Origin: Escherichia coli
GTDB taxonomy: Bacteria > Pseudomonadota > Gammaproteobacteria > Enterobacterales > Enterobacteriaceae
NCBI GenBank assembly: GCA_009729775.1
Contig: GCA_009729775.1_4081.1
Reading direction: 5' to 3' (one strand)
DNA: 64,000 nt
The position numbers and the translations under genes were made by a program. The notes under the pieces were generated by a model that saw only the letters and a list, made by a program, of their open reading frames with translations, was not told the DNA's origin and did no database searches. Positions 37,959 to 53,356 of the stretch are shown here, one piece after another (the stretch's first letter is position 1; every line of letters starts with the position of its first letter).

Positions 37959-37973
37959 TTTAGTTTATCCTAT

Positions 37974-39330: not shown

Positions 39331-39524
39331 TTTGTATTCCTCTTTGTGGTTGATGTAAGTATTATACTCGTTTACTTTCTATTGTCAATCTTTTTTATCA
39401 GGGGAGTTTTTCGTATGTCTTACTCCTGGACTACTTAACGGGGTTACTTGTTTCGTTCCCCGTCCTGATGTAAAACATTATACTTGATTCTAAGTACAAT
39501 GCAAGTACTTTTTAAAAATAGTTT

Positions 39525-39689: not shown

Positions 39690-39759
39690 TTACTCCTGGT
39701 TATGTCGTTATTAAACATTATACGGGGTTATAGATAGTTTGCAATTAGTTTTTCAGTAC

Positions 39760-39870
39760 TAGCCACCAGCATATAATAGATACATTTATGCACCCTGTGG
39801 GCTGATTTGTTTCTATGCGTATATAATAGCAAAGGGACTGACCGGAGTCAATCCCTTTTTTAATTCTTTT
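39760..39870. repeat. repeated intergenic composite element, copy 3
   Basis: as above. Confidence 0.6.
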
Positions 39871-40019
39871 TAAACTTGTTTTGGGTTGCGATATGTGATA
39901 GCGTTCGGGTACATTTGTTTAATGTTATTCCATGCCTGGTTAACATTGTAACCACTTGAGCGAATCAGTTGGTTACTACCGACACCTTGAAACACTACTT
40001 CGAATAAGAATTCTTTCAT
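39870..40019 (-). CDS. hypothetical small protein (below track cutoff)
   Basis: about 49 aa ORF MKEFLFEVVFQG...; ATGA overlap with upstream ORF. Confidence 0.3.
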   Translation of the reverse strand: MKEFLFEVVFQGVGSNQLIRSSGYNVNQAWNNIKQMYPNAITYRNPKQV

Positions 40020-40189
40020 GCTTTCACCTCGCGATCTGCTTTACCTTTACGCCACGCTGTTGCTAATTGTTCGCGTTGCCATAAGTCGAGTGATACGTAA
40101 AGTTTTGCATTATCACCCTTCGGATACTCGCCAGTAGTACCAATCCGATAAAACAGATCTTTCAGTACTGATAATTCCACCTGGATCAT
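40016..40189 (-). CDS. hypothetical small protein (below track cutoff)
   Basis: about 57 aa ORF MIQVELSVLKDL... Confidence 0.3.
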   Translation of the reverse strand: MIQVELSVLKDLFYRIGTTGEYPKGDNAKLYVSLDLWQREQLATAWRKGKADREVKA

Positions 40190-40297
40190 TGTATTACTCC
40201 TGATTGTGTTAGTACTTCTACGATGGCATGAATGATCATAAGTACAGCTAACACAACAATCATCGGATTCATTTGCATAAGCTGTACTCCTTATATA

Positions 40298-40510
40298 TTA
40301 ATCTTTCAGCCAATGATCTTGAATGAATTTTTCACAGAATCCCTGTTTCATAGATTCTAACAGGCGTTCACGGTGAGCGGCGGCATATTGCTCAGTACTA
40401 TGCGTTACGCCAGGTTGATAACGTGAAACACCGTCTGGTCCGATATATTGAACATCCCACGGTTTTTCGTTAGTATCAGACCATTTACGAACGATTAGTT
40501 GACCTTGCAT
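40298..40510 (-). CDS. hypothetical protein
   Basis: 70 aa ORF with promoter cassette and AGAGGA RBS. Confidence 0.55.
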   Translation of the reverse strand: MQGQLIVRKWSDTNEKPWDVQYIGPDGVSRYQPGVTHSTEQYAAAHRERLLESMKQGFCEKFIQDHWLKD

Positions 40511-40527
40511 GTTTCTTTCCTCTTAGT

Positions 40528-40587
40528 GGGGAGAATCATTTCTCCCCTTCATGTAACTTATTATACAGTACTAGATTACATTGTCAA
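40528..40587 (-). promoter_or_regulatory. early promoter cassette (TTGACA-16-TATAAT) and hairpin GGGGAGAA-tcat-TTCTCCCC
   Basis: -35 at 40582-40587, -10 at 40560-40565, hairpin 40528-40547 (coordinates on plus strand). Confidence 0.6.
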
Positions 40588-40593
40588 TAGTTT

Positions 40594-40917
40594 TTATTCA
40601 CCTTGTTTGAATATAGTTTTCTCCATTGATTCCATGATTGCAACCAATACAGCATGGATCTCACTTAACGCGGCATCACTAAAAGCATTAATGAATAGGC
40701 AATCATTCTCGCGAATATTTTTAATGTACTTATCAGCAGTGGTTGCGAATTCATTCAACGGCAGATCAAATGCTTTATCCCATAATGGATGGCGTAACTG
40801 TAACAGTACTGGATTATCACGGTCACCAGGTGAGAAAGTGCCTGTAATGAAACATACACCAGGGATACTTTCGAATTGACAACGAACTTCTTTTGTGATA
40901 GTAGTATGAATATACAT
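40594..40917 (-). CDS. hypothetical protein
   Basis: 107 aa ORF. Confidence 0.55.
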   Translation of the reverse strand: MYIHTTITKEVRCQFESIPGVCFITGTFSPGDRDNPVLLQLRHPLWDKAFDLPLNEFATTADKYIKNIRENDCLFINAFSDAALSEIHAVLVAIMESMEKTIFKQGE

Positions 40918-40944
40918 TTATTTTTATCCTCTATTAAATTAATA

Positions 40945-41133
40945 TTACAGTTTATGAATCAATTCTTTATCCAAGCGATAGCGAACATTATTGATTGTAA
41001 CTGCATTGTTTTTAATGCTACGCTGTACAGGTCCACCAGCAATAACAAACGTTGCCTTATTGCCCCGAACGATGATAGCACTTCCAGGATTACCGAAATC
41101 ATCTTGTACTAAAATGCTTGATAAGTTTTGCAT
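40945..41133 (-). CDS. hypothetical protein
   Basis: 62 aa ORF. Confidence 0.45.
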   Translation of the reverse strand: MQNLSSILVQDDFGNPGSAIIVRGNKATFVIAGGPVQRSIKNNAVTINNVRYRLDKELIHKL

Positions 41134-41149
41134 TTGTCTTTCCTTGTAG

Positions 41150-41208
41150 TGGGGAGAACTATTCTCCCCTTCATGTAAACAATTATACAGTACTGAAAAC
41201 TAATTGCA
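41150..41208 (-). promoter_or_regulatory. early promoter cassette (TTGCAA..TATAAT) and hairpin
   Basis: reverse complement of intergenic region. Confidence 0.5.
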
Positions 41209-41212
41209 AGTA

Positions 41213-41569
41213 CTATGATAAAATCATTATAGGATATTCACTATCAATCAGTACTTCAAAACCAAAACTTTCATACCATTCTTTAAGATTAAATGAGTTA
41301 TCTTCTCCCGTATCGCATTCTAAGATGATACAATCTGAATCATCGGCCGCATCAATAAAGGCATTCATTAATTCAGTACCTTCACCGTTACCGCGATTAT
41401 CGGGATCAACATAAAGAGAATCAATAAACGCTACACGATCATAATCAAGATCTGGTGCAACAATGCCACGTTTAACAAACCAGTACTGCAATTGTGCTAC
41501 TTTGCCTTGTACTTGATAGCCAGTGATCTCACCATTGTCTGTAGTACGCGTGATATGTTGTATACCCAT
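41213..41569 (-). CDS. possible GNAT-like acetyltransferase (weak)
   Basis: segment VAFIDSLYVDPDNRGNGEGTELMNAFIDAA resembles GNAT acetyl-CoA binding motif. Confidence 0.35.
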   Translation of the reverse strand: MGIQHITRTTDNGEITGYQVQGKVAQLQYWFVKRGIVAPDLDYDRVAFIDSLYVDPDNRGNGEGTELMNAFIDAADDSDCIILECDTGEDNSFNLKEWYESFGFEVLIDSEYPIMILS

Positions 41570-41632
41570 GATTTCAATCCTCAGTTAAGATATAAAATAT
41601 TATACACTAACTAACAGTACTGTCAATACTTT

Positions 41633-41890
41633 TTATCTCATAGATCTATGCCAACAATTACGCGGTTGACGTTTAAAAATACTATCATGATCCTCCTGGC
41701 AAGTTATGCAGTACTTACATCCCTTAACGGCCTGGCGACGTTTCTCAGGGATTATATCACCGCAGTCGAGGCAATGTATCAGTGATTCTATTTGTGCGTT
41801 AATTTGCGTTCTAGCGTGGTTAACAGCGGCCTGAATCACTGCGTTAATCTCGTCTTGCTCGGCCCCATCTTTCGTGAATCCTACAGCCAT
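41633..41890 (-). CDS. TraR/DksA-family C4 zinc-finger protein
   Basis: CLDC-x17-CITCQ (C-x2-C-x17-C-x2-C) signature in 85 aa protein. Confidence 0.6.
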   Translation of the reverse strand: MAVGFTKDGAEQDEINAVIQAAVNHARTQINAQIESLIHCLDCGDIIPEKRRQAVKGCKYCITCQEDHDSIFKRQPRNCWHRSMR

Positions 41891-42119
41891 TATTTTAACC
41901 TCATTATAAAAATACTATAGTACTGTAATGCGACAATAATATTACTTGTTCTTACTTTTTCCAATCCACATGATACAACATATTCATCCCCATATGTTCG
42001 AAACGAAACACCATGAAAATTTTTATACACTTGCACTTCTAATCATAACCTTTTGTCTAACCAACTGCGTAGAATTATACTACTTTACGCAAATTGATCA
42101 AGTATTGATCAGATCATTT

Positions 42120-42200
42120 TTTGATCAATATTATACAGTTACATTTGTGCACCCTATGGGTTAGTGCCTTGTGTCCGGCTTATGTACTTATTATACAGTA
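42120..42200. repeat. variant element with GCACCCTATGGG core and CCGGCTT hairpin
   Basis: similar to 50110-50200. Confidence 0.4.
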
Positions 42201-42221
42201 CTTGATGATATTGTCAATAGT

Positions 42222-42419
42222 TTATTTTAATTTTTTTCTGTCATTGATTAATGCTTTCAGTACTATACTAATAACTTGCAATGATTCATCAATGACTATA
42301 AAATTATTTTCTTTCATTAGATGATAGTTACCATTGATTGTATATTCTAATGAGTACTGTTTACGTTTAATTTTTGATAATGTATCAATTTGTTTTTGTA
42401 CTGATTTCATGCTAATCAT
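42222..42419 (-). CDS. hypothetical protein
   Basis: 65 aa ORF. Confidence 0.45.
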   Translation of the reverse strand: MISMKSVQKQIDTLSKIKRKQYSLEYTINGNYHLMKENNFIVIDESLQVISIVLKALINDRKKLK

Positions 42420-42526
42420 TGTTAAACGTCCTGTAATGCATTCTAACGAGATAAACGGTTTAGTACTGGCATTGTATAGGGTAAATGATTAAAGCCCACC
42501 AGCGTTAACCAGTGGGCTATAATCTT

Positions 42527-42670
42527 ACATCTTGCGGATAATCTTAACAGTATCTTTCACCGATTTACCGTCTTGCTGACATTGTTCGATCATCGCGTAT
42601 TGTTCTGCGGTCAGATCCTCGCCAGTTTTTGCCAGTACTGCGTCGATGAATGAATCCAGTGCGATCATTT
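42527..42670 (-). CDS. hypothetical small protein (below track cutoff)
   Basis: 47 aa ORF MIALDSFIDAVLAK... Confidence 0.3.
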
Positions 42671-42767
42671 TATTTCTCTCTTAGGTTAAGTTAACTACTG
42701 TTGATAAAAGTTATTATACAGTACTATCAAACATTGTCAATAGATTTAATAGTACTGGTAATATATT

Positions 42768-42947
42768 TTAGCGGTAATCGTCGTATGCTTTATTAACCTG
42801 GCGAATGTAACTTTCAAAGGCTTCGTCTACCGTTTCATACTCCCGAACATAATCACCATAGGAAACTACATACATCCCTTTTTGATCTTCAAACGTCATG
42901 ATGATAGAATCCAGTCCGATGATTTCAGTTTTTGCGATAATAGCCAT
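42768..42947 (-). CDS. hypothetical protein
   Basis: start at MAIIAKTEI; repeated promoter cassette upstream. Confidence 0.5.
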   Translation of the reverse strand: MAIIAKTEIIGLDSIIMTFEDQKGMYVVSYGDYVREYETVDEAFESYIRQVNKAYDDYR

Positions 42948-43038
42948 TTTAGTATTCCTTAAATTAATATGCGTTGTCTTGATAAAAGTTATTATGCCAG
43001 TACTATCAAACGTTGTCAATAGTACTGTGATAATATTT

Positions 43039-43251
43039 TTAGTTAATGATAGTCAGTGTAAAATTGTAATCCCCTGCCTGGTATAGTACTTTATCGCCGA
43101 ACGTGCCAACACGTTTCATATTGCAATAGATACCCATAACATTTTTTACATCTTTGATATTCCGAACGCCAGTGATATCCTTGTTGAAATTTTCATGATC
43201 AGAAAATAAAACTTGTTTTGCATTTTTCAGTACAGTGCAGATATTAGCCAT
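43039..43251 (-). CDS. hypothetical protein
   Basis: 70 aa ORF. Confidence 0.5.
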   Translation of the reverse strand: MANICTVLKNAKQVLFSDHENFNKDITGVRNIKDVKNVMGIYCNMKRVGTFGDKVLYQAGDYNFTLTIIN

Positions 43252-43270
43252 TTCGATTTCTCTCTGTTAG

Positions 43271-43338
43271 TAGGGAAGTACTGTTACTTCCCGTGCCTTG
43301 ATGTAAACTATTATACAGTACTATAATCTATTGTCAAA
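43271..43338 (-). promoter_or_regulatory. early promoter cassette (TTGACA-16-TATAAT) and hairpin GGGAAGTA-acag-TACTTCCC
   Basis: reverse complement of intergenic region. Confidence 0.5.
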
Positions 43339-43351
43339 CTATTTTTTAATA

Positions 43352-43693
43352 TTATTCAAAATCTTCTGGACCGGACTGATAATCATCCTCACCGTATGCA
43401 CTTTCTAACTTCTCGCCAGTGTAATCATCAGTTAGTGAGTCATCCTCATAGTTCACGTCTACGCCCGTGATGTAAAACTGGCTATCGTCTGGATCATTGA
43501 AATTAATTTTCTGAATGTTTACAATAACTGTATTGATACCCAGGACACAGCCATCAGCCGTTACAAAGTACTGATATTTTTCACATCCACCACTATTGAA
43601 ACCGTAATTGATTTCGGCCCGACCATCATTTAAACGCAGTGCCTGAGCGATGATTTCGTTTTCAAAGTTAGATTGAGCAATTGCAATAGTCAT
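43352..43693 (-). CDS. hypothetical acidic protein
   Basis: 113 aa ORF. Confidence 0.55.
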   Translation of the reverse strand: MTIAIAQSNFENEIIAQALRLNDGRAEINYGFNSGGCEKYQYFVTADGCVLGINTVIVNIQKINFNDPDDSQFYITGVDVNYEDDSLTDDYTGEKLESAYGEDDYQSGPEDFE

Positions 43694-43789
43694 GATTCGT
43701 TTCCTTATTACCAGGGGAAACCGTTTCCCCTTGCGATGTAAAACATTATACGCCTATTGATATAGTTTGCAAGTACTTTTTATCAAATA

Positions 43790-43920
43790 CTTTAAAATAG
43801 TTTTCAGTACTCAATCATTATACAATAGATACACTTATGCACCCTGTGGGCTAGTGAGCTATCTCTCAATGAATACATAATAGCAAAATGGCTGACCGAA
43901 GTCAACCACTTTTTTTCATT
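43790..43920. repeat. repeated intergenic composite element, copy 4 (more diverged hairpin)
   Basis: as above. Confidence 0.5.
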
Positions 43921-44054
43921 TATTTTTAGCTTTTAGAATCGCCGCCTTTCGCGTCATGCCTTGCTTGATGTACTCCTTTACTTTCGCTTTACGTGCTTTC
44001 GCTTTATCTGCTTTCGTTTTAGGAGTACTGTAAATTAAACCGTTAGGATTCATT
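43917..44054 (-). CDS. hypothetical small basic protein (below track cutoff)
   Basis: 45 aa Lys-rich ORF MNPNGLIYSTPKTKADKAKARKAK... Confidence 0.3.
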
Positions 44055-44139
44055 TAAATCACCATAAAGAATAGATAGGTTACTAACAATGCCGCCAGTA
44101 CTGCACCGACCAGGGCCGAACTATAGTAAGCTAATGATT

Positions 44140-44292
44140 TCATTTTTTAGCCTGAAAGTAATGTTTAATTTGTGCGGCGGTCAGTGCACAATTACGCAGG
44201 AAGTTTTCTGTATAACTTTTACGAGTACTGAAAGAGTACTGACCTTTCCCGTTACCGATAGTAACATCAAACCGAGCGTTATATTGTTTCAT
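44140..44292 (-). CDS. hypothetical small protein
   Basis: start at MKQYNARFD; track MVLP extension is hairpin. Confidence 0.45.
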   Translation of the reverse strand: MKQYNARFDVTIGNGKGQYSFSTRKSYTENFLRNCALTAAQIKHYFQAKK

Positions 44293-44309
44293 TTTGTTTC
44301 TCCTAGTAT

Positions 44310-44382
44310 CGGGGAGAACCATTCCCCCCCTCTATGTAAACAATTATACAGTACTGAAAACTAATTGCAAGTACTTTCTAAG
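44310..44382 (-). promoter_or_regulatory. early promoter cassette (TTGCAA..TATAAT) and 5' hairpin
   Basis: reverse complement of intergenic region. Confidence 0.5.
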
Positions 44383-44567
44383 TAATGTTTATAAGCTGAA
44401 TCAACCACTCTTTCGATAACATACGCTAACGGCACGTATCCAACTACATGACTACAATAAAAAGGACTACGATTAGAATCATCGTATGCAAATACTTTTT
44501 CAGGATCTGCATCAATCACATACATATTAACCTTTAAGATGTCTATCTTATCCTGTACAGTAAGCAT
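44361..44567 (-). CDS. hypothetical protein
   Basis: start at MLTVQDK; upstream part of track ORF overlaps another small ORF in a different frame. Confidence 0.45.
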   Translation of the reverse strand: MLTVQDKIDILKVNMYVIDADPEKVFAYDDSNRSPFYCSHVVGYVPLAYVIERVVDSAYKHYLESTCN

Positions 44568-44571
44568 ATTA

Positions 44572-44742
44572 CGCCGCCTTATCAGTACTGGCAACCGGAC
44601 GGATACGGGCCATTTCATGGGCTTGTTCCACACTGTAACGCTCATAAAGGCGGCATTCTTCCGGTGTAGGAACAGCATCAATACGTTTCATTGGTTTAAT
44701 GATGCTTTCAACTTCATTCAGTACTTGATTAACGTTCATGGT
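44572..44742 (-). CDS. hypothetical small protein (below track cutoff)
   Basis: 56 aa ORF MNVNQVLNEVES..., stop 2 nt before next ATG. Confidence 0.35.
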
Positions 44743-44790
44743 ATAATCCCCAATATAAGCGGCCTAAATCGACCGCTAACGATGTTTTGA

Positions 44791-45060
44791 TTAATAGGTG
44801 TATGGTTGACGCTCAAACAATGATTGCACGTTGTACGCCCCGCTAATGGGCTTTGCTGGCAAATCAATTTTATATTGTTCACGCTTAAAAATAATAAAAC
44901 GGCAATTGTTTTTAACATCAAAATTGATTGAACGTTCCAATAGCTTTCCTTCGTGTACAAATACAAGATAACCGCTTGCTACTTGTTTTGTAGTACTGGT
45001 TGCAACCATTGACCGACGAACATGAGTACCTGCATCGATTAAAGTACTGATATTTTTCAT
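44791..45060 (-). CDS. hypothetical protein
   Basis: 89 aa ORF. Confidence 0.5.
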   Translation of the reverse strand: MKNISTLIDAGTHVRRSMVATSTTKQVASGYLVFVHEGKLLERSINFDVKNNCRFIIFKREQYKIDLPAKPISGAYNVQSLFERQPYTY

Positions 45061-45140
45061 TTTACTATCCTCTTAATTTGATTTAATTTCTTTCCCCTAT
45101 GCAGACACTATATCAAAGTATCTGCATAAAGTAAAGCTAA

Positions 45141-45485
45141 TTAAAGATCTTTTTTGCGTTTAACATCAGTTACCGAACTGTAAACAGTGATATTATTGTC
45201 ACGGCAAAAACGGGAAAGATAAGAACCGCGTAAAAACTCTTTATCTTCCATATTAATAACCTTGCTAAATTCTTCCATTGCTACAGTGTCAAAGTGATCC
45301 CCGTATCCATATTGGAACGGCACGTTTACTACTTCAATAAAATTACCATCAATTTCTACGTCTACACTTAAAGAGAAATAAGTGTTACCATATGAAGCCT
45401 GGAACCAACGCCGAGCGGCAATATGTACAACTTCAACAGAAGACAGGTTGATATTTTGTGCTGAGATAGTGTTGATGTTAGCCAT
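45141..45485 (-). CDS. hypothetical protein, paralog of 38517..38840
   Basis: shared motifs, C-terminal VKRKKDL. Confidence 0.6.
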   Translation of the reverse strand: MANINTISAQNINLSSVEVVHIAARRWFQASYGNTYFSLSVDVEIDGNFIEVVNVPFQYGYGDHFDTVAMEEFSKVINMEDKEFLRGSYLSRFCRDNNITVYSSVTDVKRKKDL

Positions 45486-45566
45486 TTTAATTTCCTCTTA
45501 GTTGTCTTGATAAAATCTATTATGCCAGTACTATCAAACTATGTCAATAGTACTGTGATAATAATT

Positions 45567-45779
45567 TTACTTACTTTGCTTTGATGCTTTATGTTGTGCA
45601 ACTGCCATCACTACATCAGCACGAACAAAGTTAGCAACCGTATCAGTATAATATTTGATTGCATCGTCAATATCTGCGAACATCCGATACATTCCGCACC
45701 ATGATACTTTATAACCCGCTTTCACTTGTTCCAGTTTAACCAGTGAATTGTTTACTTTGATTTTTGTAATGATAGCCAT
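45567..45779 (-). CDS. hypothetical protein
   Basis: 70 aa ORF, N-terminus MAIITK similar to 42768..42947. Confidence 0.5.
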   Translation of the reverse strand: MAIITKIKVNNSLVKLEQVKAGYKVSWCGMYRMFADIDDAIKYYTDTVANFVRADVVMAVAQHKASKQSK

Positions 45780-45862
45780 TTTTGTTTCCTCTTAGTTGTC
45801 TTGATAAAATCTATTATGCCAGTACTATCAATCTATGTCAATAGTACTGTGATAATAATTTT

Positions 45863-46006
45863 ACTTACTTTTTGCTTTCTTTATTGCTTCCACCTGGTCG
45901 GCCCACTCTTTACCCCATACTTGAGCGTTATAGTGATACTGACAAAGAGCAACGCCCCGTTTCAAACCAGTGATAGATTTTTTACCACATTGACAAGTTT
46001 TCATTT
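45863..46006 (-). CDS. hypothetical small Cys-containing protein (below track cutoff)
   Basis: 47 aa ORF MKTCQCGKKS...CQYH with its own promoter-hairpin cassette and RBS. Confidence 0.4.
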
Positions 46007-46020
46007 TTAGTTTCCTCTTA

Positions 46021-46086
46021 GTGGGGAGAATCATTTCTCCCCTTGATGTAATGTATTATACTTTATCCGATTTACTTTGCAAGTAC
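46021..46086 (-). promoter_or_regulatory. early promoter cassette (TTGCAA..TATAAT) and hairpin GGGGAGAA-tcat-TTCTCCCC
   Basis: reverse complement of intergenic region. Confidence 0.5.
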
Positions 46087-46089
46087 TTT

Positions 46090-46317
46090 TTAGTTTAATT
46101 CATCCAGGCATAAGATACGATCTACGCCGAGATCCGTTAAGCTAATGGTTGGCACTTGATAGGTTTCAATGTATTCTACACTAGCCCACTGACCGAACTC
46201 ATTCACCGCCCAGGTATTCATTGCAAAATGTAATTCCGCACCTTTCTTATTAGTAATTACAGCAACAGTAGAAGAATTGCCAGTAGTACCAGATACGCGA
46301 GTGATTACGATAGCCAT
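46090..46317 (-). CDS. hypothetical protein
   Basis: 75 aa ORF. Confidence 0.5.
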   Translation of the reverse strand: MAIVITRVSGTTGNSSTVAVITNKKGAELHFAMNTWAVNEFGQWASVEYIETYQVPTISLTDLGVDRILCLDELN

Positions 46318-46750
46318 TGTTTTGATTCCTATTCAGTAGTTGATGTATGTATTATGTCAGTACTTAAAACTATTGTCAAACTATTTTTTAAAGACTATCT
46401 ACGATAGCTGCCGTTTCAATAATAGACTTACCTTTTTTTGAACATGCAATAACTGCTTTAAATTCCTTTGATGACCATTCTTTTTTACTGCATACTAACA
46501 TTACTTGCATAGTGAAACAATCCAGTTCATAAGTATTCATCTTTAAATCCTCAGTTAGTTAAGGTGTCTTGCCTTGATGTAACTAATTATACGCCTTTCT
46601 CTTAATCGTGCAAGTACTTTTTATTACTTTTTGCAAAATACTTTAAACGCTCTCAATCGCATTCTAACGGCCTTAACTCCACCAGCTAGGGCGATGCATC
46701 AGATAATCAGTTTAATGCGTTAGAATCGATTCTATGAGGTGCTGACGGTC

Positions 46751-46786
46751 TGGAATGCAATAAAAACAAAAAAGCCCACTGCTTAT
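46751..46786 (-). terminator. rho-independent terminator
   Basis: AGCCCAC-N8-GTGGGCT hairpin with long U-tract on minus strand after stop of 46816..47313. Confidence 0.6.
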
Positions 46787-46815
46787 AGTGGGCTAGTGAT
46801 TCAGTACTTTAAATG

Positions 46816-47298
46816 TTATGCTTCAATTTTGCGGTGAGATTCGATCCATTCCTCGCGAGTCATACCGCTTTCTTTGATAGCATCCAGTACTACCGCAATG
46901 CAGTTACCGCGTACAGGAATCAAATGTTCTTCCCCGTTATCAAGGACAACCGTAACACGTTCTTGAATCCATTTTTTAGGCTTAGATTCCGGCTTATCTT
47001 CACCGTACTTAACCGCCAGGGCTTTATGTGCCATTTCAATAACCACTTCCAGATCTAAACCAGACACCGCCGCCTGAATACTTTCTATTGTTGCTTGCAG
47101 TTCTGCTTCACGGGCTTTTTTCTGTTCTTCCAGTTCTGCTACCTTTTTGGCTTGTAGTTCTTTCGCTTCACTGTAAGCAATGTTAAAATTGTTGCGTACT
47201 GCTTTCATGGTATCATTATCCAGGTCAGCCAGCAATTCAGCAGCAATCACAGTATCGTTAGAAATCAGTGCTTTCAGAAATGATTTTACATTAGCCAT
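46816..47298 (-). CDS. hypothetical protein, predicted coiled-coil
   Basis: start at MANVKSFLK; Ala/Glu/Lys-rich heptad-like segment. Confidence 0.55.
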   Translation of the reverse strand: MANVKSFLKALISNDTVIAAELLADLDNDTMKAVRNNFNIAYSEAKELQAKKVAELEEQKKAREAELQATIESIQAAVSGLDLEVVIEMAHKALAVKYGEDKPESKPKKWIQERVTVVLDNGEEHLIPVRGNCIAVVLDAIKESGMTREEWIESHRKIEA

Positions 47299-47482
47299 TT
47301 TATAAATCCTCAATTAAAGTTTAAGTTAGTTTATCAAAGTTTGTTTGACGTGTCCAGTTTTTCATTCGACTTACTGGCGGTCTACTTAATGTTCCCCGTC
47401 TTGATGTAATACATTCTACGCTTTTCCCTGGTAATGTCAACTACTTTTTTAAAACTATTTTCAAAGTATACCAGTACTACGA

Positions 47483-47520
47483 TAATACAAAAACAAAAAA
47501 GCCCACTGTTTAAGGTGGGC
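47483..47520 (-). terminator. rho-independent terminator
   Basis: GCCCAC-N8-GTGGGC hairpin with U-tract on minus strand after stop of 47539..47838. Confidence 0.6.
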
Positions 47521-47538
47521 TAGTGATTCAGTACTAGA

Positions 47539-47838
47539 TTATAAACAGTTAATTACTCCGGTGTGCGTTACTTTCTCAGTATCCATCACAGTGACCGAAC
47601 CGCGTTTAGTACTGGCATCATAATAAATTGTTGTGCTACCGTTTTTGTCTTCTTCATGGAACGGGCCGTTTTTAAATGCTTCCGGCTGGATCTCTAAATC
47701 CTTTAATACAATCTCGCCAGTTCTTTCATCGGTCATTGCAACAGTGCACTGAATGAATTTTTCACTACTTACATCTAATGACGCATTAACAGCGAAAGAG
47801 GAAACAGATAAAGCCAGGGCGATGATTGCAATTTTCAT
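47539..47838 (-). CDS. secreted protein with N-terminal signal peptide
   Basis: MKIAIIALALSVSSFAVNA signal-like N-terminus. Confidence 0.55.
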   Translation of the reverse strand: MKIAIIALALSVSSFAVNASLDVSSEKFIQCTVAMTDERTGEIVLKDLEIQPEAFKNGPFHEEDKNGSTTIYYDASTKRGSVTVMDTEKVTHTGVINCL

Positions 47839-47922
47839 TTGATTATCCTTAGTTACCAGGGGGAACCGCTCCCCCTTGCTATGTAAAATATTATACAGTA
47901 CTAAAAACTAATTGCAAGTACT

Positions 47923-48159
47923 TTATGATTTTTTATAAAACATTTCGGCAGTGATATTTTTACCCGTTGGCTGTACTTTATCCAGAATTTTTTGATGCCC
48001 TGGCCGTCCAAATGAATATGATCCGTAAACCGTAAACCAGTAGTTACCCTCAGTGTTTACATGTACAGCACAATAGGGAACGCCCCGCGATTCATCACTA
48101 GTAAAGTGTGCTACCGTTCCCGTTACATTCGAAGTCGTTGATTTGATTTGTTCAAGCAT
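47923..48159 (-). CDS. hypothetical protein
   Basis: 78 aa ORF. Confidence 0.5.
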   Translation of the reverse strand: MLEQIKSTTSNVTGTVAHFTSDESRGVPYCAVHVNTEGNYWFTVYGSYSFGRPGHQKILDKVQPTGKNITAEMFYKKS

Positions 48160-48266
48160 TTTCTTATTCCTTAGTTACCAGGGGAACCGCTCCCCTATGC
48201 AAAACATTATACGCGTTTAAAAACTATTGTCTAGTATTTTAATAAAAAGTATTTGAAAAATAGTTG

Positions 48267-48396
48267 TTGACAAGTGCATCCAGTACTGGCATAATACTTA
48301 CATAAAGACGAGATAGTCACTAACCCACAGGGTGCATAGATCCGTCTATTAAATGATTCAGTACTGCAAAATAAAGGGGATCAATTGATCCCCTCT
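48267..48396 (+). ncRNA. candidate small RNA unit: plus-strand promoter (TTGACA-17-CATAAT), conserved CCCACAGGGTGCAT core, hairpin
   Basis: promoter at 48267-48295, no ORF, ends at palindromic hairpin; core shared with other copies. Confidence 0.25.
48365..48396. terminator. palindromic hairpin, possible bidirectional terminator
   Basis: GGGGATC-aatt-GATCCCC with T-rich flanks on both sides. Confidence 0.4.
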
Positions 48397-48399
48397 GTA

Positions 48400-48621
48400 T
48401 TACTTAGTAAGGTATAAACAGAAGTCACCTTTATTTGCTACGCCGCCAGTGTAACGCGATGAATAGTTAGAAACGTCCTGGACTTCTGCTATTACCAGTG
48501 TATCATCATTCAATTCGTCGCAGAAGCAAACGGCTGGATCTTTTACGCCGATATTGTCGGCATGTTCCCGCATAGATTTAACCAGTGCTTCAAGTTGGGA
48601 AAGAGTAGTGATATTAGCCAT
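48400..48621 (-). CDS. hypothetical protein
   Basis: start at MANITTLSQ; track MVLP extension is hairpin. Confidence 0.5.
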   Translation of the reverse strand: MANITTLSQLEALVKSMREHADNIGVKDPAVCFCDELNDDTLVIAEVQDVSNYSSRYTGGVANKGDFCLYLTK

Positions 48622-48708
48622 TTTATTTTCCTCATTACCAGGGAGAACCATTTTCTCCCCTCTATGTAAACCATTATACAGTACTAAAAACTAATTGCAA
48701 GTACTTTT

Positions 48709-48912
48709 TTAATTTAATTGCTTTAAAACATACTCAAAGACACCACGCACATCATTGATCATCGCCTGGCGGTTAGCAGGTAACGCATCAGGATCGCCAC
48801 TATCCCAGGCATTGATAAAACTCCCCAAATCATGATAGATTTTATTCTGTAAGCCGATCAACTGCAATTCTTTTTCTTCAAGCTCTTTGATACGTTCAAT
48901 TAAATCACTCAT
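48709..48912 (-). CDS. hypothetical protein
   Basis: start probably at MSDLIERIKE. Confidence 0.5.
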   Translation of the reverse strand: MSDLIERIKELEEKELQLIGLQNKIYHDLGSFINAWDSGDPDALPANRQAMINDVRGVFEYVLKQLN

Positions 48913-48929
48913 TATATAATCCTTAGTAC

Positions 48930-49211
48930 TTAATTGTAAGATCCGCAACGGTCGCAGTAGTGCCCCTCGTCATCGTCAACGAATTGACCAACGAAATTAT
49001 CTACTTTCGCTTTCAGGTTATTATAATCGTTTTCTACTTCCTTTAAACGCTTCTGGTAGTATTCCAGTGCTTTAAGATATGCCGCATCAGTAGTTTTCTC
49101 CTGCATAGCTAAATTCATGCCACGCGTTTCATCATAAAGCCAATAACCATCAGTACATTGGCTAATAGACAATGACTTGCTTAACACTGTATAGTTAATT
49201 ACTTTGCTCAT
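48930..49211 (-). CDS. hypothetical protein
   Basis: start probably at MSKVINYTV; C-terminal CDRC pair. Confidence 0.5.
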   Translation of the reverse strand: MSKVINYTVLSKSLSISQCTDGYWLYDETRGMNLAMQEKTTDAAYLKALEYYQKRLKEVENDYNNLKAKVDNFVGQFVDDDEGHYCDRCGSYN

Positions 49212-49301
49212 TAGATAACCCTCAGTAAAGGCGGGAACCACTCCCCGCCTCGATATAAAGTATTATACGCTTTTAAACTTAGTATGCAAGTACTTTTTAA
49301 A

Positions 49302-49913
49302 TTAATATGCGATAGATTCTACTACATCGTCGATAACGTTAAATTGATATTCGTTACCCTCAATCAGTCCTACAATGTTTTCAGTAGTAAACTGGTCTTC
49401 ATAAGCATTTTCTAAATCACGGTACAGCTTACAAGATAATTCTCGGATAGTATCAGTCAGTAAGTTTTCCAGATCCTCAGCTAATGCAGCCTGTTTTACA
49501 GTTAAATCAGTGTAGCGAGTATCAACGCAACCGCCTACCGTGTTTTCGTGAGCGTAGCGTGATTGGGAACGTTCTACACTCATTTCCAAATCATCTTCGT
49601 TCAACAGGTGACGGATGGAACGATATTTCGTTAACGCCTTAACCTTGCGTAAAAACTTCTCAGCGTCAACGTGGTCAGTACTGATTGATGCACCGTCACC
49701 TTGCGACCAAAAACCACTGTATTGCAATTCAGCTTCATCTATGCCGTATTCTGGCAGTACTGTTTCTTTATAGTATTCCAGTACTGATTCAGCAAAGAAA
49801 TTATCCTCACTTGCACGTTCCCGATCCCGAACCAGTTCGATAGCCGCCGCTTGTTGTTCTGCGTTCAGTTCAGAAAAATCCATAACGAAAGTAGTAGTAG
49901 TGATAGTTTTCAT
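49302..49913 (-). CDS. hypothetical acidic protein
   Basis: 203 aa ORF; promoter TTGACA-16-TATAAT upstream. Confidence 0.6.
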   Translation of the reverse strand: MKTITTTTFVMDFSELNAEQQAAAIELVRDRERASEDNFFAESVLEYYKETVLPEYGIDEAELQYSGFWSQGDGASISTDHVDAEKFLRKVKALTKYRSIRHLLNEDDLEMSVERSQSRYAHENTVGGCVDTRYTDLTVKQAALAEDLENLLTDTIRELSCKLYRDLENAYEDQFTTENIVGLIEGNEYQFNVIDDVVESIAY

Positions 49914-50109
49914 TTTGTAACCCTCATTCAGTAGTTGATGTAAGTATTATACGCTTTTAAAAACAATTGTCAAACTATTTTATCAGGGGAGTTTTTCGTG
50001 TGCCTTACTCCTGGGCTACTTAACGGGAAGTTACTTATTTCGTTCCCCGTCCTGATGTAAAACATTATACGCCTTTAAACATAGTTTGCAAGTACTTTTT
50101 GAAAATAGT

Positions 50110-50200
50110 TTTTATCTCTTTCATATAGATACATTCCCGCACCCTATGGGCTATCGCCTTGTGTCCGGCTTGTAAGTATTATCTCACTAAGCCGGATAAC
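50110..50200. repeat. variant element with GCACCCTATGGGCTA core and CCGGCTT...AAGCCGG hairpin
   Basis: similar to 42120-42200. Confidence 0.4.
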
Positions 50201-50212
50201 GGTCAAGTACTT

Positions 50213-50479
50213 TTATTCAAGTACTGCAATCTTTTTAGTACTGTATACAGTAACGCGGTTGCCCTTTCGGTCGTGCTTTATTTCTACCACTCGACGCGAT
50301 ACACTATCAGGACTTTTTAAAACCGATCTCCAGTACTGAATTGATCGGGCTGTACTTTGCTTTACTACGGCCCAACGTTTACCACGTTCAGAATGTACGC
50401 CCATATCTTTAAACGTCGCCCCGTCCTGGCGTGCGGCAATCCGAGCAAGTTCACGCGTTGCAAAGTATATAATATTCAT
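50213..50479 (-). CDS. hypothetical protein, paralog of 38022..38417
   Basis: start at MNIIYFATREL; shared FATRE..FKDMG..HDRKGNRVTVYS. Confidence 0.6.
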   Translation of the reverse strand: MNIIYFATRELARIAARQDGATFKDMGVHSERGKRWAVVKQSTARSIQYWRSVLKSPDSVSRRVVEIKHDRKGNRVTVYSTKKIAVLE

Positions 50480-50561
50480 GCTGTTACCCCTATCGTTGTT
50501 GTATAAAAGAAATCTATTATAAAGTACTATCACCGTGCAATAGTACTTTTAATCTATTCTC

Positions 50562-50801
50562 TTACATTCCAACCATCGCCGCACGGATCGCAGTAGTGCT
50601 ATACTTAAAGCCGTCCGGTGTTTTATCTTGTCCAGTCTGTTCTAAAAATAGCATCATATGACGGGCCGCATCATTACGATTAGTGTTAGCGGCAATAAAG
50701 TCCTGGGCCAACCGGTATAATGATTCGTCGTTATTAATCCAAAGGCTTACATTCCATTGAGTTTTGTTTTTGTGACCTAAGAACATTTTTGATTTAGCCA
50801 T
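50562..50801 (-). CDS. hypothetical protein
   Basis: start at MAKSKMFLG; track extension covers hairpin. Confidence 0.5.
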   Translation of the reverse strand: MAKSKMFLGHKNKTQWNVSLWINNDESLYRLAQDFIAANTNRNDAARHMMLFLEQTGQDKTPDGFKYSTTAIRAAMVGM

Positions 50802-50814
50802 TTTTTTAATCCTC

Positions 50815-50885
50815 TTATATAGTGGGGAACTATTCCCCACCTGATGTAAAACATTATACGCTTTTAAACTTAGTTTGCAAGTACT
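50815..50885 (-). promoter_or_regulatory. early promoter cassette (TTGCAA-16-TATAAT) and hairpin GGGGAA-tagt-TCCCC
   Basis: reverse complement of intergenic region. Confidence 0.55.
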
Positions 50886-50894
50886 TTATTAAAC

Positions 50895-51257
50895 TTATTC
50901 GTAAATCTTTCCACTATCAGCCCATACCAGGAAACGAGGCATATTATCCCATGCATCTTGTTTTAAATTTAAACCGTGTAATACTTCTGTACTTTCCATT
51001 CCTGGTACTGGTTTACTATACACCGCGAACATTTCGCCCATGTACTGATAAGCCATCGTTAAATCACTGGCGATCATCTTATGAATCATCGCATCAAGCA
51101 TCACGGTAGCGGCGTATTGTTCACGCTTAAGCGGTAACATTGCAATAAGTTCCCGATAAGCTGAAATGTGAATTTTTACCGTTTCAGCCGGAAGATCTTT
51201 CATCTCTTCACGGAAGTTAACCAGGTTAGCAATAATTTTAGTGATTTGAGTAGCCAT
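50895..51257 (-). CDS. hypothetical protein
   Basis: start at MATQITKII. Confidence 0.55.
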   Translation of the reverse strand: MATQITKIIANLVNFREEMKDLPAETVKIHISAYRELIAMLPLKREQYAATVMLDAMIHKMIASDLTMAYQYMGEMFAVYSKPVPGMESTEVLHGLNLKQDAWDNMPRFLVWADSGKIYE

Positions 51258-51280
51258 CGTTTTAATCTCTCTTAAAGTGT

Positions 51281-51345
51281 AGCGGGAAGTGTTCCCGCTC
51301 TCGATGTAAAACATTATACGCCTATCGGGATAGTATGCAAGTACT
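51281..51345 (-). promoter_or_regulatory. early promoter cassette and hairpin GCGGGAA-gtg-TTCCCGC
   Basis: reverse complement of intergenic region. Confidence 0.5.
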
Positions 51346-51563
51346 TTCTACTAATACTTTTAAAATAGTTTTCTTTCTATATAGGAGTACTATCATTCAG
51401 TACTGAATCAACCAAATCACTACTATACCCCATAAAACGGCCTCAGCCGCTTTCTAACGCATTAATACACCTAAGCTATACATTTGCACCGCCACCAGCT
51501 AACCAGGGCTTTATAGGCCGTTTAAGGGCGTTAAATTATTTTCAATTATTTTGTTTTTAGCTA

Positions 51564-51700
51564 TTGACTCAGTACAAAAAAAGCGTATAATTACTACATA
51601 GACGCGAGAAAGCGGATACCCCAGGGGGTGGGAAGATCCGTCCAAAATTCATATAATTTAAAAAGGATACACTCCCGCACCTTAGCAGGTCATAGCACTT
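51564..51700 (+). ncRNA. candidate small RNA unit driven by TTGACT-16-TATAAT
   Basis: promoter 51564-51591 in non-coding region; downstream GACGCGAGAAAGCGG...GATCCGTC element related to 48300 copy. Confidence 0.2.
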
Positions 51701-51778
51701 TCTCAGTACTGAATCATAGTACCATAGTACGCCCCTGGATGGCAAGCAAATTAATTAAAACTTTTTACATCCAGGGTA

Positions 51779-51870
51779 TTGCTTTATTTTTCCAGTACTG
51801 TATAATAGTTTCATCAAGTCGAGAAAGACTCAAGCCCACCGGGTGCATAGTTGTATCTAAAATTCAGTAC
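51779..51870 (+). ncRNA. candidate small RNA unit driven by TTGCTT-16-TATAAT
   Basis: promoter 51779-51806; downstream GTCGAGAAAGACTCAAGCCCACCGGGTGCATAG element. Confidence 0.2.
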
Positions 51871-52029
51871 TGAATTATTTTTTAAAAATATCCATCCAGG
51901 CGGTTGACATATCCATCAAAAAGATAGATAATGATTCCAGATTCAGAAAAATCTAACTCCAGATACTGCGGGGAAACCATCCCCACGCGGTAGGGGAACT
52001 ATTGGAAAAAACAAAATAAAAATTTTGAT

Positions 52030-52150
52030 TTAGCCGTCTGTACTTCCAGACGTGTAACCATCTAGCCGTTTAGCCGTCCAAACGTCTAGCCATCCAGCCG
52101 CCTAGAGGGATAGCCATCTTTACTTCCAGACTTCTGGAGGGCTAGACATA
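52030..52150. repeat. iteron-like short direct repeats (AGCCGTC / AGCCATC / ACTTCCAGAC)
   Basis: at least 7 copies of AGCC[GA]T[CT] within 120 bp, non-coding. Confidence 0.5.
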
Positions 52151-52742
52151 TCTACGTCCAAAATCCACCCAGGGTAACTACGCCCAAAATCCGTCAGTAC
52201 TATACTATAGATCTATCTTTTGAAAGGGAGTATTCAGTACTGCCACAATAGCCCTCACTGTTACTGTAGGAGGATGAAGACTATCATGTAGTACTGAATA
52301 CTGTTAGAGGGAATCCACCAGCTTGTGCTGGTGGCATAATGCATTAGATTAAAATCAGTACTGACACCATTCTGTTAATATCAGTACTGTTTATATTACG
52401 AAAAAAGAGGTTATAAAAAGATGTACCACCCATAGGAGGAACTATCCTTTCAGTACTGTCTCACGACAGGAGGTAGAGTGAATGAATTGTTTGCGGCAAC
52501 TCATCTCTCTATGTAGAACATTATACAGTACTGAATCATAATGTCAATAGCTTTCTTTCATTATTCAGTACTGAAATCGTATAATCTGTATCGCTACAAA
52601 ACTCATTATATCCCACAAATCCTATATGTCCCAACGTAAATTTCAACTTTCGAAGATCCAACTTTTATTTCATAGGTACTCCAAATTTTTTACGATCCAG
52701 ATTTAGGATGGAGTACTAACCAACTTTTTGCTGGAGCCTCAA

Positions 52743-52790
52743 GGGGTAATTGAATTTTACCCCGAATGGTAAAGGGGTAATTGAAATTAA
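52743..52790. repeat. GGGGTAATTGAA direct repeat x2, first copy part of a palindrome
   Basis: GGGGTAAttgaattTTACCCC then aaaGGGGTAATTGAAA. Confidence 0.45.
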
Positions 52791-52820
52791 GGTGAAAGTA
52801 ATAATTCAGTACTAATCATT

Positions 52821-53052
52821 GCGTGATTACTTTTGATTACATTTGATGTAATTTGCAAAATGGAAAAGGAGCTTGGAAACTACAAAGTACGGCAGACTTC
52901 CTCTGCCTACTTAGTGGCATATCAGTACTGCTACGTTCTTGATTAAACGTGAACATTCCTGTACTCTAGTACTCACTACTGATCACTACAGTGATTATAA
53001 ATGATTACTTAAATGTTTATATATGATTACTTATGACTACCTATGATTACGG
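52821..53052. repeat. TGATTAC phased direct repeats (two clusters)
   Basis: TGATTAC x2 plus inverted GTAATC at 52821-52850; 5 copies of TGATTA[CT]/TGACTAC at roughly 10-bp spacing in 52990-53052. Confidence 0.5.
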
Positions 53053-53164
53053 GGTTTAGCCTGGGGAGAATCCTAGTGATCGCATTTGTCCAGGCTGAAT
53101 TTTAACAATTCGCCTGTACATAAAGGTTGTTCACTAGGAGCTTCCCCTGTCTACTTGTGTTTAA

Positions 53165-53356
53165 TTACTTCCTATATATAAGCATTAAGATATAGTAGTA
53201 CTGATTATACTGTACATTCTCTTTAATATTATAAGGGTCTATCGCAATCTCGGTACATCTGTTAAATGCATATCTATTAAATGCCAGTGGAATTATAGAT
53301 CTAATCCATACTTGTTCATTTTCTTTTAGTTTACTTATATAGAAGTTTTTATACAT
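53165..53356 (-). CDS. family D small protein
   Basis: 63 aa; C-terminal YYYILMLIYRK. Confidence 0.55.
   Translation of the reverse strand: MYKNFYISKLKENEQVWIRSIIPLAFNRYAFNRCTEIAIDPYNIKENVQYNQYYYILMLIYRK

Follow-up and report, generated by a model that had tools for sequence, protein, structure and literature searches.

A gene-free genome-end region carrying a MetJ-type octamer array in the terminal repeat of an Asteriusvirus genome

The gene-free region and its genomic setting

The stretch of DNA analyzed here (hereafter the window) comprises 64,000 nucleotides of contig GCA_009729775.1_4081.1, deposited within an Escherichia coli assembly, and the subject of this study is a gene-free region of about 1.9 kb inside it, which harbors the virion DNA end of a jumbo phage. 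Positions 51,300-53,160 matched 42 phage records at 80-95% identity, the closest of which was phage 121Q (91.8%), and all the records examined belong to Asteriusvirus. The source of the window is an Asteriusvirus, i.e., a jumbo coliphage of about 350 kb from the 121Q/PBECO4/G17 group.

The initial annotation, made from the sequence alone, had described 51,300-53,160 as a stretch with no credible open reading frame (ORF) and with several families of short repeats, and had offered it as a candidate replication origin, partition site or packaging site. The gene-free character of the region was borne out, with a true span reaching slightly beyond those bounds (51,258-53,164), and every repeat family listed was recovered at its coordinates. 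ORF conservation was judged in seven aligned relatives for ORFs of at least 25 amino acids (aa). None was intact in all seven, and the best-kept one, a 44-aa frame with a TTG start, was intact in five. A tRNA/tmRNA scan found no tRNA in the region, and Rfam 15 produced no match at the gathering score in the window and none at E ≤ 1 in 51,200-53,300. The possibility of hidden small genes was rejected, as the six to nine "hypothetical proteins" called here in some records (including E9.1, SD-1_S14, JP4, and WPEC5) are not conserved as ORFs across the genus; these calls are probably false.

The genes flanking the region lie on the minus strand on both sides, and comparisons with PHROG and Pfam assigned them only to families of unknown function, such as phrog_11711 for the gene at 53,165-53,356. 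The first gene on the other side probably starts at 51,257, because relatives annotate a protein of 120 aa and the PHROG match begins at residue 18. The region had also been said to separate transcription blocks. It does divide two units, but these are codirectional rather than divergent, since the genes on both sides share the minus strand. An inverted repeat just past the stop codon of the upstream gene block (53,057-53,153) is probably the terminator of that block.

The virion DNA end lies inside the region

The region occurs twice in records of 366-384 kb. In phage G17, bases 1-20,668 align to 350,150-370,817 with 0 mismatches, and the record holds two 20,668-bp copies of a direct terminal repeat (DTR); the right end of G17 maps to window position 52,911 and the left boundary of the repeat to 33,088. 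The sequence at the 33,088 boundary, AGGTTACCCGCC, is common to the window and the fEgEco12 end. Furthermore, six separately deposited genomes, which come from six laboratories or countries (G17, fEgEco12, vB_Ec-M-J, BF17, E9.1, and WPEC5), terminate at one and the same base, 52,911, reading ...GGCAGACTTCCTCTGCCTACT. A terminal repeat is annotated in the records of vB_Ec-M-J and fENko-Kae01. Terminal repeats of about 20 kb have also been reported for G17 from read coverage (PMC6563267) and for fEgEco12 from PhageTerm combined with restriction digests (PMC13070987), and the latter study questioned the 8.3-kb terminal repeat of UE-S1.

These comparisons demonstrate that the virion DNA end lies inside the region, between 52,911 and 52,912. 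Because the repeat is bounded at 33,088 and 52,911, the region covers the final 1.65 kb of the DTR and continues for 253 bp past its boundary. Of the functions offered by the initial annotation, that of a packaging site was the one to gain support, with the virion DNA end inside the region and TGATTAC boxes on both sides of the cut. Across the genus, identity in the region is 86-94%, similar to that of the DTR blocks alignable with the related genome TH47 (79-94%, mostly near 89%). It is with considerable confidence that we read the region as the untranslated end segment of a DTR of about 20 kb together with the repeat/unique junction, i.e., as a control region of the genome end and concatemer junction in which several modules are stacked. 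The proteins that would bind these modules, and what their binding would achieve in packaging, RecBCD processing or MetJ recruitment, are proposed below from sequence, position, and conservation.

Several points weigh against this reading. Some of the six identical record ends may copy the start chosen for an earlier genome. A comparison of the cut site at 33,088 with that at 52,911 found no convincing common motif, the sole match being a 14-nt inverted match to one TGATTAC box, located 410 bp outside the left end and within a gene; the production of both ends by terminase is therefore not readily accounted for. In addition, TGATTAC boxes are absent from fENko-Kae01, whose PhageTerm-mapped end reads ...GATA/TAGCGG (the slash marks the end).

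At the left DTR boundary the sequence reads ...GTCGCTA/AGGTTACCCGCC..., and the GC content rises there from about 0.34 to 0.41. Several (T/A)ACGCAT motifs occur in the first 250 bp inside this boundary (flanks of about 33,000-33,300).

Table 1. Positions of the features in and around the gene-free region (window coordinates; distances are to the right end at 52,911; a slash marks the cut)
Feature	Position	Strand	Remarks
Whole DTR, one collapsed copy	33,088-52,911		19,824 bp; its genes all on the minus strand
ORF-free leader and junction region	51,258-53,164		Last 1,654 bp of the DTR (51,258-52,911) plus unique 253 bp (52,912-53,164)
Promoter of the first DTR gene, TTGCAT-16-TATAAT	51,313-51,340	-	Followed by a 5' untranslated region (UTR) hairpin at 51,283-51,304; repeated-cassette family
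Further Chi site	51,492-51,499	-	Exact Chi
Outward promoter TTGACT-16-TATAAT	51,564-51,591	+	Downstream of A/T-rich block; 1,320 nt from end
Outward promoter cassette TTGCTT-16-TATAAT	51,779-51,806	+	CAGTACTG abuts -10; inverted copy of the DTR intergenic promoter cassette
Outward promoter TTGACA-17-GATAAT	51,904-51,932	+	979 nt from end; followed by the GGGGAAACCATCCCC stem, then the metbox array
MetJ-type metbox array	52,032-52,151		11 of 15 in-register octamers pass the threshold; 761-880 nt from end
CTACG(T/C)CCAAAATCC repeats (two)	52,149-52,192	+	26 bp apart; third, looser copy at 51,630-51,648
Chi/anti-Chi hairpin CCACCAGC-N4-GCTGGTGG	52,315-52,334		577-596 nt from end; terminator in G17 annotation
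Perfect sigma-70 consensus promoter TTGACA-16-TATAAT	52,520-52,547	-	Inward; 392 nt from end; CAGTACTG in spacer; conservation 0.99
Second inward promoter-like site	52,605-52,634	-	10/12 matches; 307 nt from end
Conserved terminal element	52,630-52,740		About 110 bp; nearly invariant in all seven relatives
Terminal element core	52,675-52,717		GGTACTCC-N27-GGAGTACT; includes GATTTAGGATGGAGTACT
Two AAGGGGTAATTGAAWTT copies	52,741-52,788	+	31 bp apart; the first forms a GGGGTAA/TTACCCC hairpin
TGATTAC cluster I	52,823-52,856	+	Two direct boxes 10 bp apart, third inverted; 55-88 nt inside end
Imperfect inverted repeat AAGTAcGGCAGA-CTTCC-TCTGCCTACTT	52,885-52,912		Cut one base inside right arm
Physical right end, taken as terminase cut	52,911/52,912		Conserved core GCCTACT/TAGTGG
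TGATTAC-like cluster II	52,991-53,050	+	Six boxes, spacing about 10-11 bp; 80-139 nt outside end
23-nt inverted repeat	53,057-53,153		Just past the stop codon of the upstream minus-strand gene block

Conserved elements around the cut

The cut is surrounded by short repeated boxes. Exact TGATTAC was found five times within 230 bp, always on the plus strand (at 52,824, 52,834, 53,002, 53,024, and 53,044, with a spacing of 10-22 bp), out of 26 copies in the whole window. The two direct boxes of cluster I are kept even in phage A4. Both clusters are well conserved, cluster II with values of 0.94-0.97 across the seven relatives, whereas the stretch separating it from the cut varies in sequence and contains many indels. 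When read on the minus strand, the boxes form GTAAT-N5-GTAAT tandem repeats, which may resemble the 10-bp direct-repeat sites of winged-helix regulators of the OmpR/CpxR type (CpxR: GTAAA-N5-GTAAA).

Further inside the end lies the conserved terminal element. Within the end-proximal 600 bp, only the core of this element still has a match in more distant jumbo phages, namely fENko-Kae01, Munch, 7t3, SE_PL, PHA46, and Xanthomonas phage XbC2. Counted from the start of the record, the core is found at 54-128 nt in three of these (fENko-Kae01, Munch, and XbC2), whose genomes have an equivalent ORF-free span at the terminal-element end; it measures about 1.3 kb in fENko-Kae01/Munch and, in XbC2, about 1.7 kb. 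Next to the element, GGGGTAATTGAA occurs twice (52,743-52,754 and 52,774-52,785), and the AAGGGGTAATTGAAWTT pair is partly deleted in CMSTMSU. The inverted repeat at the cut has a predicted DNA fold of -11.5 kcal/mol (z -2.6). Its candidacy as a recognized structure was weakened by phage A4, in which the right arm and the cut core are preserved and the left arm is not, so that the terminal hairpin itself may not matter. The fENko-Kae01 genome ends exactly at an unrelated 8-bp inverted repeat.

A cut core accompanied by phased boxes is also the organization of the SPP1 pacL/pacC/pacR and lambda cosB sites. As in SPP1 pacL-pacC-pacR and the R sites of lambda cosB, the cut observed here falls between two clusters of short direct repeats spaced at roughly one helical turn. 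The resemblance does not extend to sequence similarity, and no IHF site is present in the region; moreover, SPP1 packages by headful, whereas the ends found here are exact on both sides of a 20-kb repeat. By this analogy, the TGATTAC clusters and the terminal element are candidate binding sites for terminase, and together with the cut core they could form the platform on which the packaging enzyme assembles.

An octamer array resembling MetJ operators

The AGCC[GA]TC repeats noticed in the initial annotation proved to be real and more regular than it had described, since they follow a strict 8-nt register throughout 52,032-52,151. Shifted by one base, the octamers read AGCCGTCT, AAACGTCT, AGACGTGT, AGCCATCT, and the like, and resemble the operator unit of the E. 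coli methionine repressor MetJ, AGACGTCT. Such operators naturally comprise two to five boxes (metboxes). Scoring of the window followed Augustus and Spicer (PMC3228920), whose half-box matrix and thresholds pass an octamer at one quarter or more of the consensus score and accept a site when its total reaches at least the consensus score (12.58 bits). The 11 passing boxes score 4.7-10.7 bits each, and none passed in the other seven registers of the array. Seven consecutive boxes (52,048-52,103) total 50.5 bits, the higher of only two sites in the window, with the best site in 200 shuffles reaching 23 bits. Across the complete TH47 genome, the array homologous to this one (14+3 boxes) scores 103 bits, and no other site exceeds 15 bits. 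As a control, the identical code was run on 8.5 kb of E. coli K-12 and found no sites other than the metJ/metB operator (31 bits) and the metF operator (25 bits), with four boxes apiece; their per-box range of 4.5-10.4 bits is near that of the phage array.

The array shares with E. coli MetJ operators the strict 8-bp register, the CTAG at many box junctions, and a host that has MetJ. It differs from them in the number of boxes (11 here and up to 16 in other phages, compared with four in each scored operator), in a consensus skewed from AGACGTCT to AGCCGTCT, and in not being located at the promoter of a methionine gene. Control of a methionine or S-adenosylmethionine (SAM) gene, as expected of an operator, was not found, as there is no ORF downstream on either strand and the array sits between convergent promoters.

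A BLAST search with the array retrieved 72-90 phage records from at least five lineages, while no similar array was found in 5,426 E. coli genomes (chromosomes and prophages) or 72,556 plasmids. Besides Asteriusvirus, the jumbo carriers include XbC2 (Mimasvirus), GAP32, Serratia phage BF, Erwinia pEa_SNUABM phages, and Yersinia phage fHe-Yen9. T5-like carriers infect Vibrio, Aeromonas, and Providencia, with 15 boxes in Pontus, where the array sits among T5 DRD-type repeats, and 16 in AhSzw-1 (139 bits); in Providencia phage PR1, the array (9,611-9,694) falls under a feature annotated just as "repeat_region". In the phiKT/PGT2 podophages, nine boxes lie 40-110 nt from the end, inside the terminal repeat. 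A further two Vibrio phages, of 80 and 46 kb, carry the array by BLAST match only. Many of these arrays are less than 1 kb from the record end. Outside the genus, matrix scoring was applied to XbC2, to the T5-like Pontus and AhSzw-1, and to the phiKT-like PGT2, and yielded 8-16 consecutive boxes. A strict three-octamer pattern found only seven stretches in IMG/VR and is too strict to gauge prevalence. Homology of the array to the T5 DRD was considered and rejected, the DRD being a different 15-mer. MetJ has been reported in five bacterial orders (PMC3228920), and 89 of 90 array-bearing records have hosts in three of these (Enterobacterales, Vibrionales, and Aeromonadales). In the searchable literature, nothing relevant was found on metboxes in phages or MetJ sites in phage genomes, and the phage metbox array appears not to have been described previously.

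On these grounds, the array is a putative MetJ binding site. We propose tentatively, as a possibility that falls short of an even chance, that 8-16 tandem metboxes form a super-operator which lies within about 1 kb of the end of virulent phages with fixed terminal repeats and which recruits the host MetJ with SAM. This would apply to at least five lineages, namely Rak2-like jumbo phages, T5-like phages of Vibrio, Aeromonas, and Providencia, phiKT-like podophages, and the two other Vibrio phages. If correct, the end of the phage chromosome would make use of a host metabolic repressor, either structurally or as a sensor. The array could then pause or anchor entering DNA (in T5-like phages, in the place of the injection stop signal), block a tracking enzyme, or soak up MetJ and so switch on methionine and SAM synthesis, and a jumbo phage would combine such an array with a T5-style two-step entry of its 20-kb repeat.

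The following features count against recruitment of MetJ. Most phage boxes read AGCCGTCT, and the C at position 3 is penalized by the matrix. The array is missing from T5 and the fENko-Kae01/Munch group in the sequence checked and is hence not obligatory for a terminal-repeat lifestyle. A single distance-dependent mechanism is unlikely given that the array is 40-110 nt from the end in PGT2 and about 800 nt in Asteriusvirus. The asymmetry of the box keeps its polarity toward the end in three lineages (Asteriusvirus, XbC2, and PGT2), a property not expected of a symmetric MetJ dimer that may point to binding by another protein, and XbC2 is recorded on Xanthomonas, a host without MetJ. The last two features would be accommodated if the octamers were bound by a phage-encoded ribbon-helix-helix or similar protein, or acted through DNA structure by means of CTAG kinks every 8 bp; other ribbon-helix-helix proteins do bind short tandem repeats, as the omega protein does its heptads. 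This explanation seems rather unlikely to us. The carriers are unrelated phage families in which no common candidate protein was identified, though their gene contents were not compared, the per-box scores equal those of true E. coli operators, and the hosts of 89 of the 90 records match the orders that bear MetJ.

Chi sites in the terminal repeat

The window contains 10 Chi sites against 0.57 expected, all of which lie inside the DTR (34,456-52,334). Nine are on the minus strand and face RecBCD entering at the left end. The only plus-strand site (52,327-52,334) is an exact GCTGGTGG on the strand whose 3' terminus is the right end, faces RecBCD coming in from that side, and constitutes one half of the conserved Chi/anti-Chi hairpin. 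The sequence contexts of the ten sites are mutually unrelated. G17 has the same number of Chi sites as the window, and fENko-Kae01 carries the identical Chi pair 484-503 nt from its end.

The loop of the hairpin (52,323-52,326) reads TTGT in some relatives and the reverse complement ACAA in others, with constant stems; this alternation is as expected from occasional flipping of the palindrome. In TH47, the density of minus-strand Chi in the DTR is about 16 times that in the rest of the genome.

A similar concentration of Chi in or near terminally repeated DNA, oriented for RecBCD entering at the ends, has been described in phage P1 (Subramaniam and Smith), with recombination between the repeats, yielding circles or concatemers, as the proposed role. 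The concentration observed here suggests RecBCD/RecA recombination between the repeats as proposed for P1, and a role of the right-end Chi pair in RecBCD processing would fit its placement. The parallel is limited in that P1 is a temperate headful packager with variable ends, whereas Asteriusvirus is virulent with fixed ends, and in that the Chi polarity is one-sided here (nine left-facing and one right-facing).

Promoters and possible small RNAs

The region holds copies of the intergenic promoter cassette of the DTR in both orientations. The outward cassette at 51,779-51,806 is similar to 48,279-48,366 and, in inverted orientation, to 36,015-36,048 and 44,338-44,364, among others. The A/T-rich block (51,530-51,560) upstream of the outward promoter at 51,564-51,591 has a conservation of 0.99, and the GGGGAAACCATCCCC stem is located at 51,970-51,984, within a stretch (51,939-52,030) whose predicted RNA fold reaches -22.8 kcal/mol (z -3.5). 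The promoter layout recurs in fENko-Kae01, with outward promoters 892 and 1,116 nt from the end (979 and 1,320 nt here) and inward ones at 217 and 359 nt (307 and 392 nt here), and its promoter at 892 nt has hexamers and spacer identical to those of the 51,904-51,932 promoter.

Nearly every small DTR gene (33,900-51,350) is preceded by a separate cassette, in which a sigma-70-like promoter and, in the 5' UTR, a GGGGAGAACTATTCTCCCC-type hairpin come before the Shine-Dalgarno sequence. Some of these cassette hairpins are terminators in the G17 annotation, yet what follows them is a ribosome-binding site and not a T run. On the strand opposite to the genes, 48,250-48,400 (plus strand) comprises a TTGACA-17-CATAAT promoter, a unit of about 90 nt and a good terminator hairpin, and is paralogous to 51,791-51,872; the two may represent a family of small antisense RNAs.

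The presence of such units raises the question whether the region is a cluster of small noncoding RNA genes producing short structured regulator transcripts, a role that would be compatible with the others discussed here. Five to six promoter-like sites score 10-12 of 12 and have hairpins downstream, the predicted transcripts fold better than shuffled sequences (z -2.7, -3.5, and -1.9), and the unit 51,791-51,872 has a paralog with its own promoter and terminator (48,279-48,400). The region matched no Rfam family, however, most of the promoters have no canonical terminator downstream, and the identity within the genus is too high for covariation testing. Promoter-like hits are also no more numerous than in shuffles (12 vs 13.6), and only their quality and conservation stand out. 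Taken together, we give RNA genes as the main content of the region a low probability.

Origin and partition readings

If the region were an origin, as suggested in the initial annotation, DNA synthesis would be started by R-loops from its promoters or by an initiator bound to iterons. In line with this, the region contains many short repeats, an A/T-rich block (51,990-52,030), and several strong promoters in either orientation, and the origins of T4 and T7 are promoter-associated; the GC skew also changes sign at about 53 kb while the genes remain on the minus strand. Initiator boxes, however, were not encountered. The DnaA box TTWTNCACA has no copy in 51,258-53,164 (15 in the window vs 12.6 expected), and no match to the IHF consensus was found in the region. 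The skew flip is a local island of 15 kb, and the related genome is negative nearly throughout, with no genome-wide minimum here; on the cumulative skew of that whole genome, GC skew was rejected as an origin signal. The short direct repeats that had suggested iterons score instead as host MetJ-type operator boxes with an 8-bp period, and the array adjoins genome ends in unrelated phages with unrelated replication machinery. An origin is consequently very improbable in our view, and nothing points to a partition site.

Between 53,165 and 57,100 there is a run of small minus-strand genes (60-80 aa), several of which belong to phrog_11711. Their coding strand is C-rich and A-rich, with a GC skew opposite to that of all other minus-strand genes in the window, which accounts for the local flip.

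Resemblance to T5 and T7 and the question of an injection stop

In T5, Repeat Region 3 is an untranslated region of 1.2 kb, 270 bp of it outside the repeat, within a noncoding stretch of 1,662 bp, and includes the injection stop signal (iss), unexplained for more than 50 years; the shear point is at about 9,618 (bioRxiv 10.1101/866236). Like Repeat Region 3, the region analyzed here is a large untranslated, repeat-rich segment that closes a long terminal repeat on its inner side and extends into unique DNA, with 1,654 bp inside and 253 bp outside the repeat. In both phages the region is better conserved than expected of noncoding DNA, the early genes of the repeat are transcribed away from it, and arrayed binding sites for a host protein have been suggested. 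In the T5-like Vibrio phage Pontus, the metbox array lies among DRD-type repeats. The two regions nonetheless have no sequence homology, the Asteriusvirus repeat is twice as long, and T5 itself has no metbox array. The distinctive feature of T5, eight DnaA boxes arranged in pairs 3 bp apart within large inverted repeats, is absent here, and the T5 DRD repeat (TGTGCAAATCCGACA) had no match with up to two mismatches in 50-54 kb of the window. Two-step transfer is not known for Asteriusvirus.

This likeness leads to another explanation, compatible with a packaging role, in which the region would pause or stop injection in the manner of the T5 iss. The repeat would enter first with its left end (33,088) leading, transfer would halt until the early proteins of its roughly 50 small genes are made, and the MetJ boxes would take the part that Davison proposes for the T5 DnaA boxes. 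It draws on the position and size match to Repeat Region 3, on early genes transcribed toward the left end as in T5, and on the nine of 10 Chi sites in the repeat that face left-end entry of RecBCD, as expected if that end is exposed first. The T5-like phages add the array of PR1 (9,611-9,694), close to the T5 shear point (about 9,618), and that of Pontus, flanked by DRD-type repeats. Set against these are the absence of the paired DnaA boxes that define the T5 proposal and of DRD homology, a repeat with no ORF as large as T5 A1 (all are below 220 aa), and the fact that two-step transfer has never been reported for these jumbo phages. Left-end-first entry is moreover an assumption, and a cytoplasmic repressor cannot easily halt DNA that is still in the tail. 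We therefore regard an injection stop as a doubtful reading of the region.

The concatemer junction of T7 offers a second comparison. In T7, strong early promoters are located within about 750 bp of the left end, the short repeats are CCTAAAG heptamers, and processing needs the phage's own RNA polymerase pausing in the junction. The features in common are a unique cut, periodic short-repeat arrays (SRL/SRR in T7) beside the terminal repeat, and inward host-type promoters a few hundred bp in; additionally, PGT2/phiKT, which are T7 relatives, have this metbox array at a distance of 40-110 nt from their end. The heptamers differ from the octamers in sequence and period, the T7 repeat measures 160 bp against 19.8 kb here, and Asteriusvirus is not known to have a single-subunit polymerase. 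The region is a variant of the T5 Repeat Region 3/T7 junction type, with the metbox array as its seemingly undescribed part.

Proposed organization of the genome end

Returning to the genome-end and concatemer-junction reading, the modules can be ordered by their distance from the cut. In replicating DNA, terminase would cut at 52,911/52,912 to create the right end of the virion DNA, and the region would then form the last 1.65 kb of the chromosome in the virion. The strong host-type promoters about 300-400 nt from the end would read inward, toward the early genes. The Chi/anti-Chi pair at about 580 nt would switch RecBCD entering at the end from degradation to recombination. At 761-880 nt, every copy of the repeat would present 11 MetJ-type boxes on which the host methionine repressor, together with SAM, should form a filament. 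Conceivable effects are titration of the repressor, sensing of SAM, obstruction or pausing of a machine that tracks along DNA, and scaffolding of end processing. The outward promoters follow at about 1.0-1.3 kb.

How the ends of phages with long exact DTRs are cut, duplicated, protected, and injected is poorly understood, and the present data resolve one such end, in a phage of 350 kb, to the base. If MetJ binds the array, the methionine/SAM status of the host would be linked to the phage chromosome end, and a specific sequence could be proposed as the cis-acting entry signal of T5-like phages. For phages that are therapeutic candidates, knowledge of the exact ends and of the gene-free 1.9 kb also bears on genome assembly, annotation, and engineering.

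The CAGTACTG octamer

The octamer CAGTACTG, of which about 15 copies had been counted in the region, is indeed present, but with 11 exact copies in 51,300-53,160 and 18 AGTACT cores. It is a genome-wide motif and not specific to the region, with 60 copies in the window (0.8 expected) and 203 in the whole TH47 genome (3.6 expected), where the 10-kb bin containing the region is the densest (27 copies vs 11 or fewer elsewhere). The genome-wide excess of this palindrome is about 55- to 75-fold, and that of AGTACT about eightfold (917 vs 119). It is roughly twice as dense in intergenic DNA, fills the spacer beside the -10 box in the DTR promoter cassettes (AGTACTTGCAA-N8-CAGTACTGTATAAT), and is also frequent at the ends of fENko-Kae01 and XbC2.

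Two explanations were discarded. SlmA, whose consensus is GTGAGTACTCAC, is not compatible with the flanks, as G...C is the rarest of them (three of 917 AGTACT sites). A peptide-coding artifact is contradicted by the presence of the octamer in intergenic DNA and by its use of two or more reading frames (86, 68, and 14 sites). Nothing relevant on CAGTACTG was found in the literature, and the motif is probably the site of a dimeric DNA-binding protein.

AGTACT has a mean of about four copies per kb in the window and is absent from the 6 kb between 20,000 and 26,000, which may be a recently acquired segment or a differently constrained gene.

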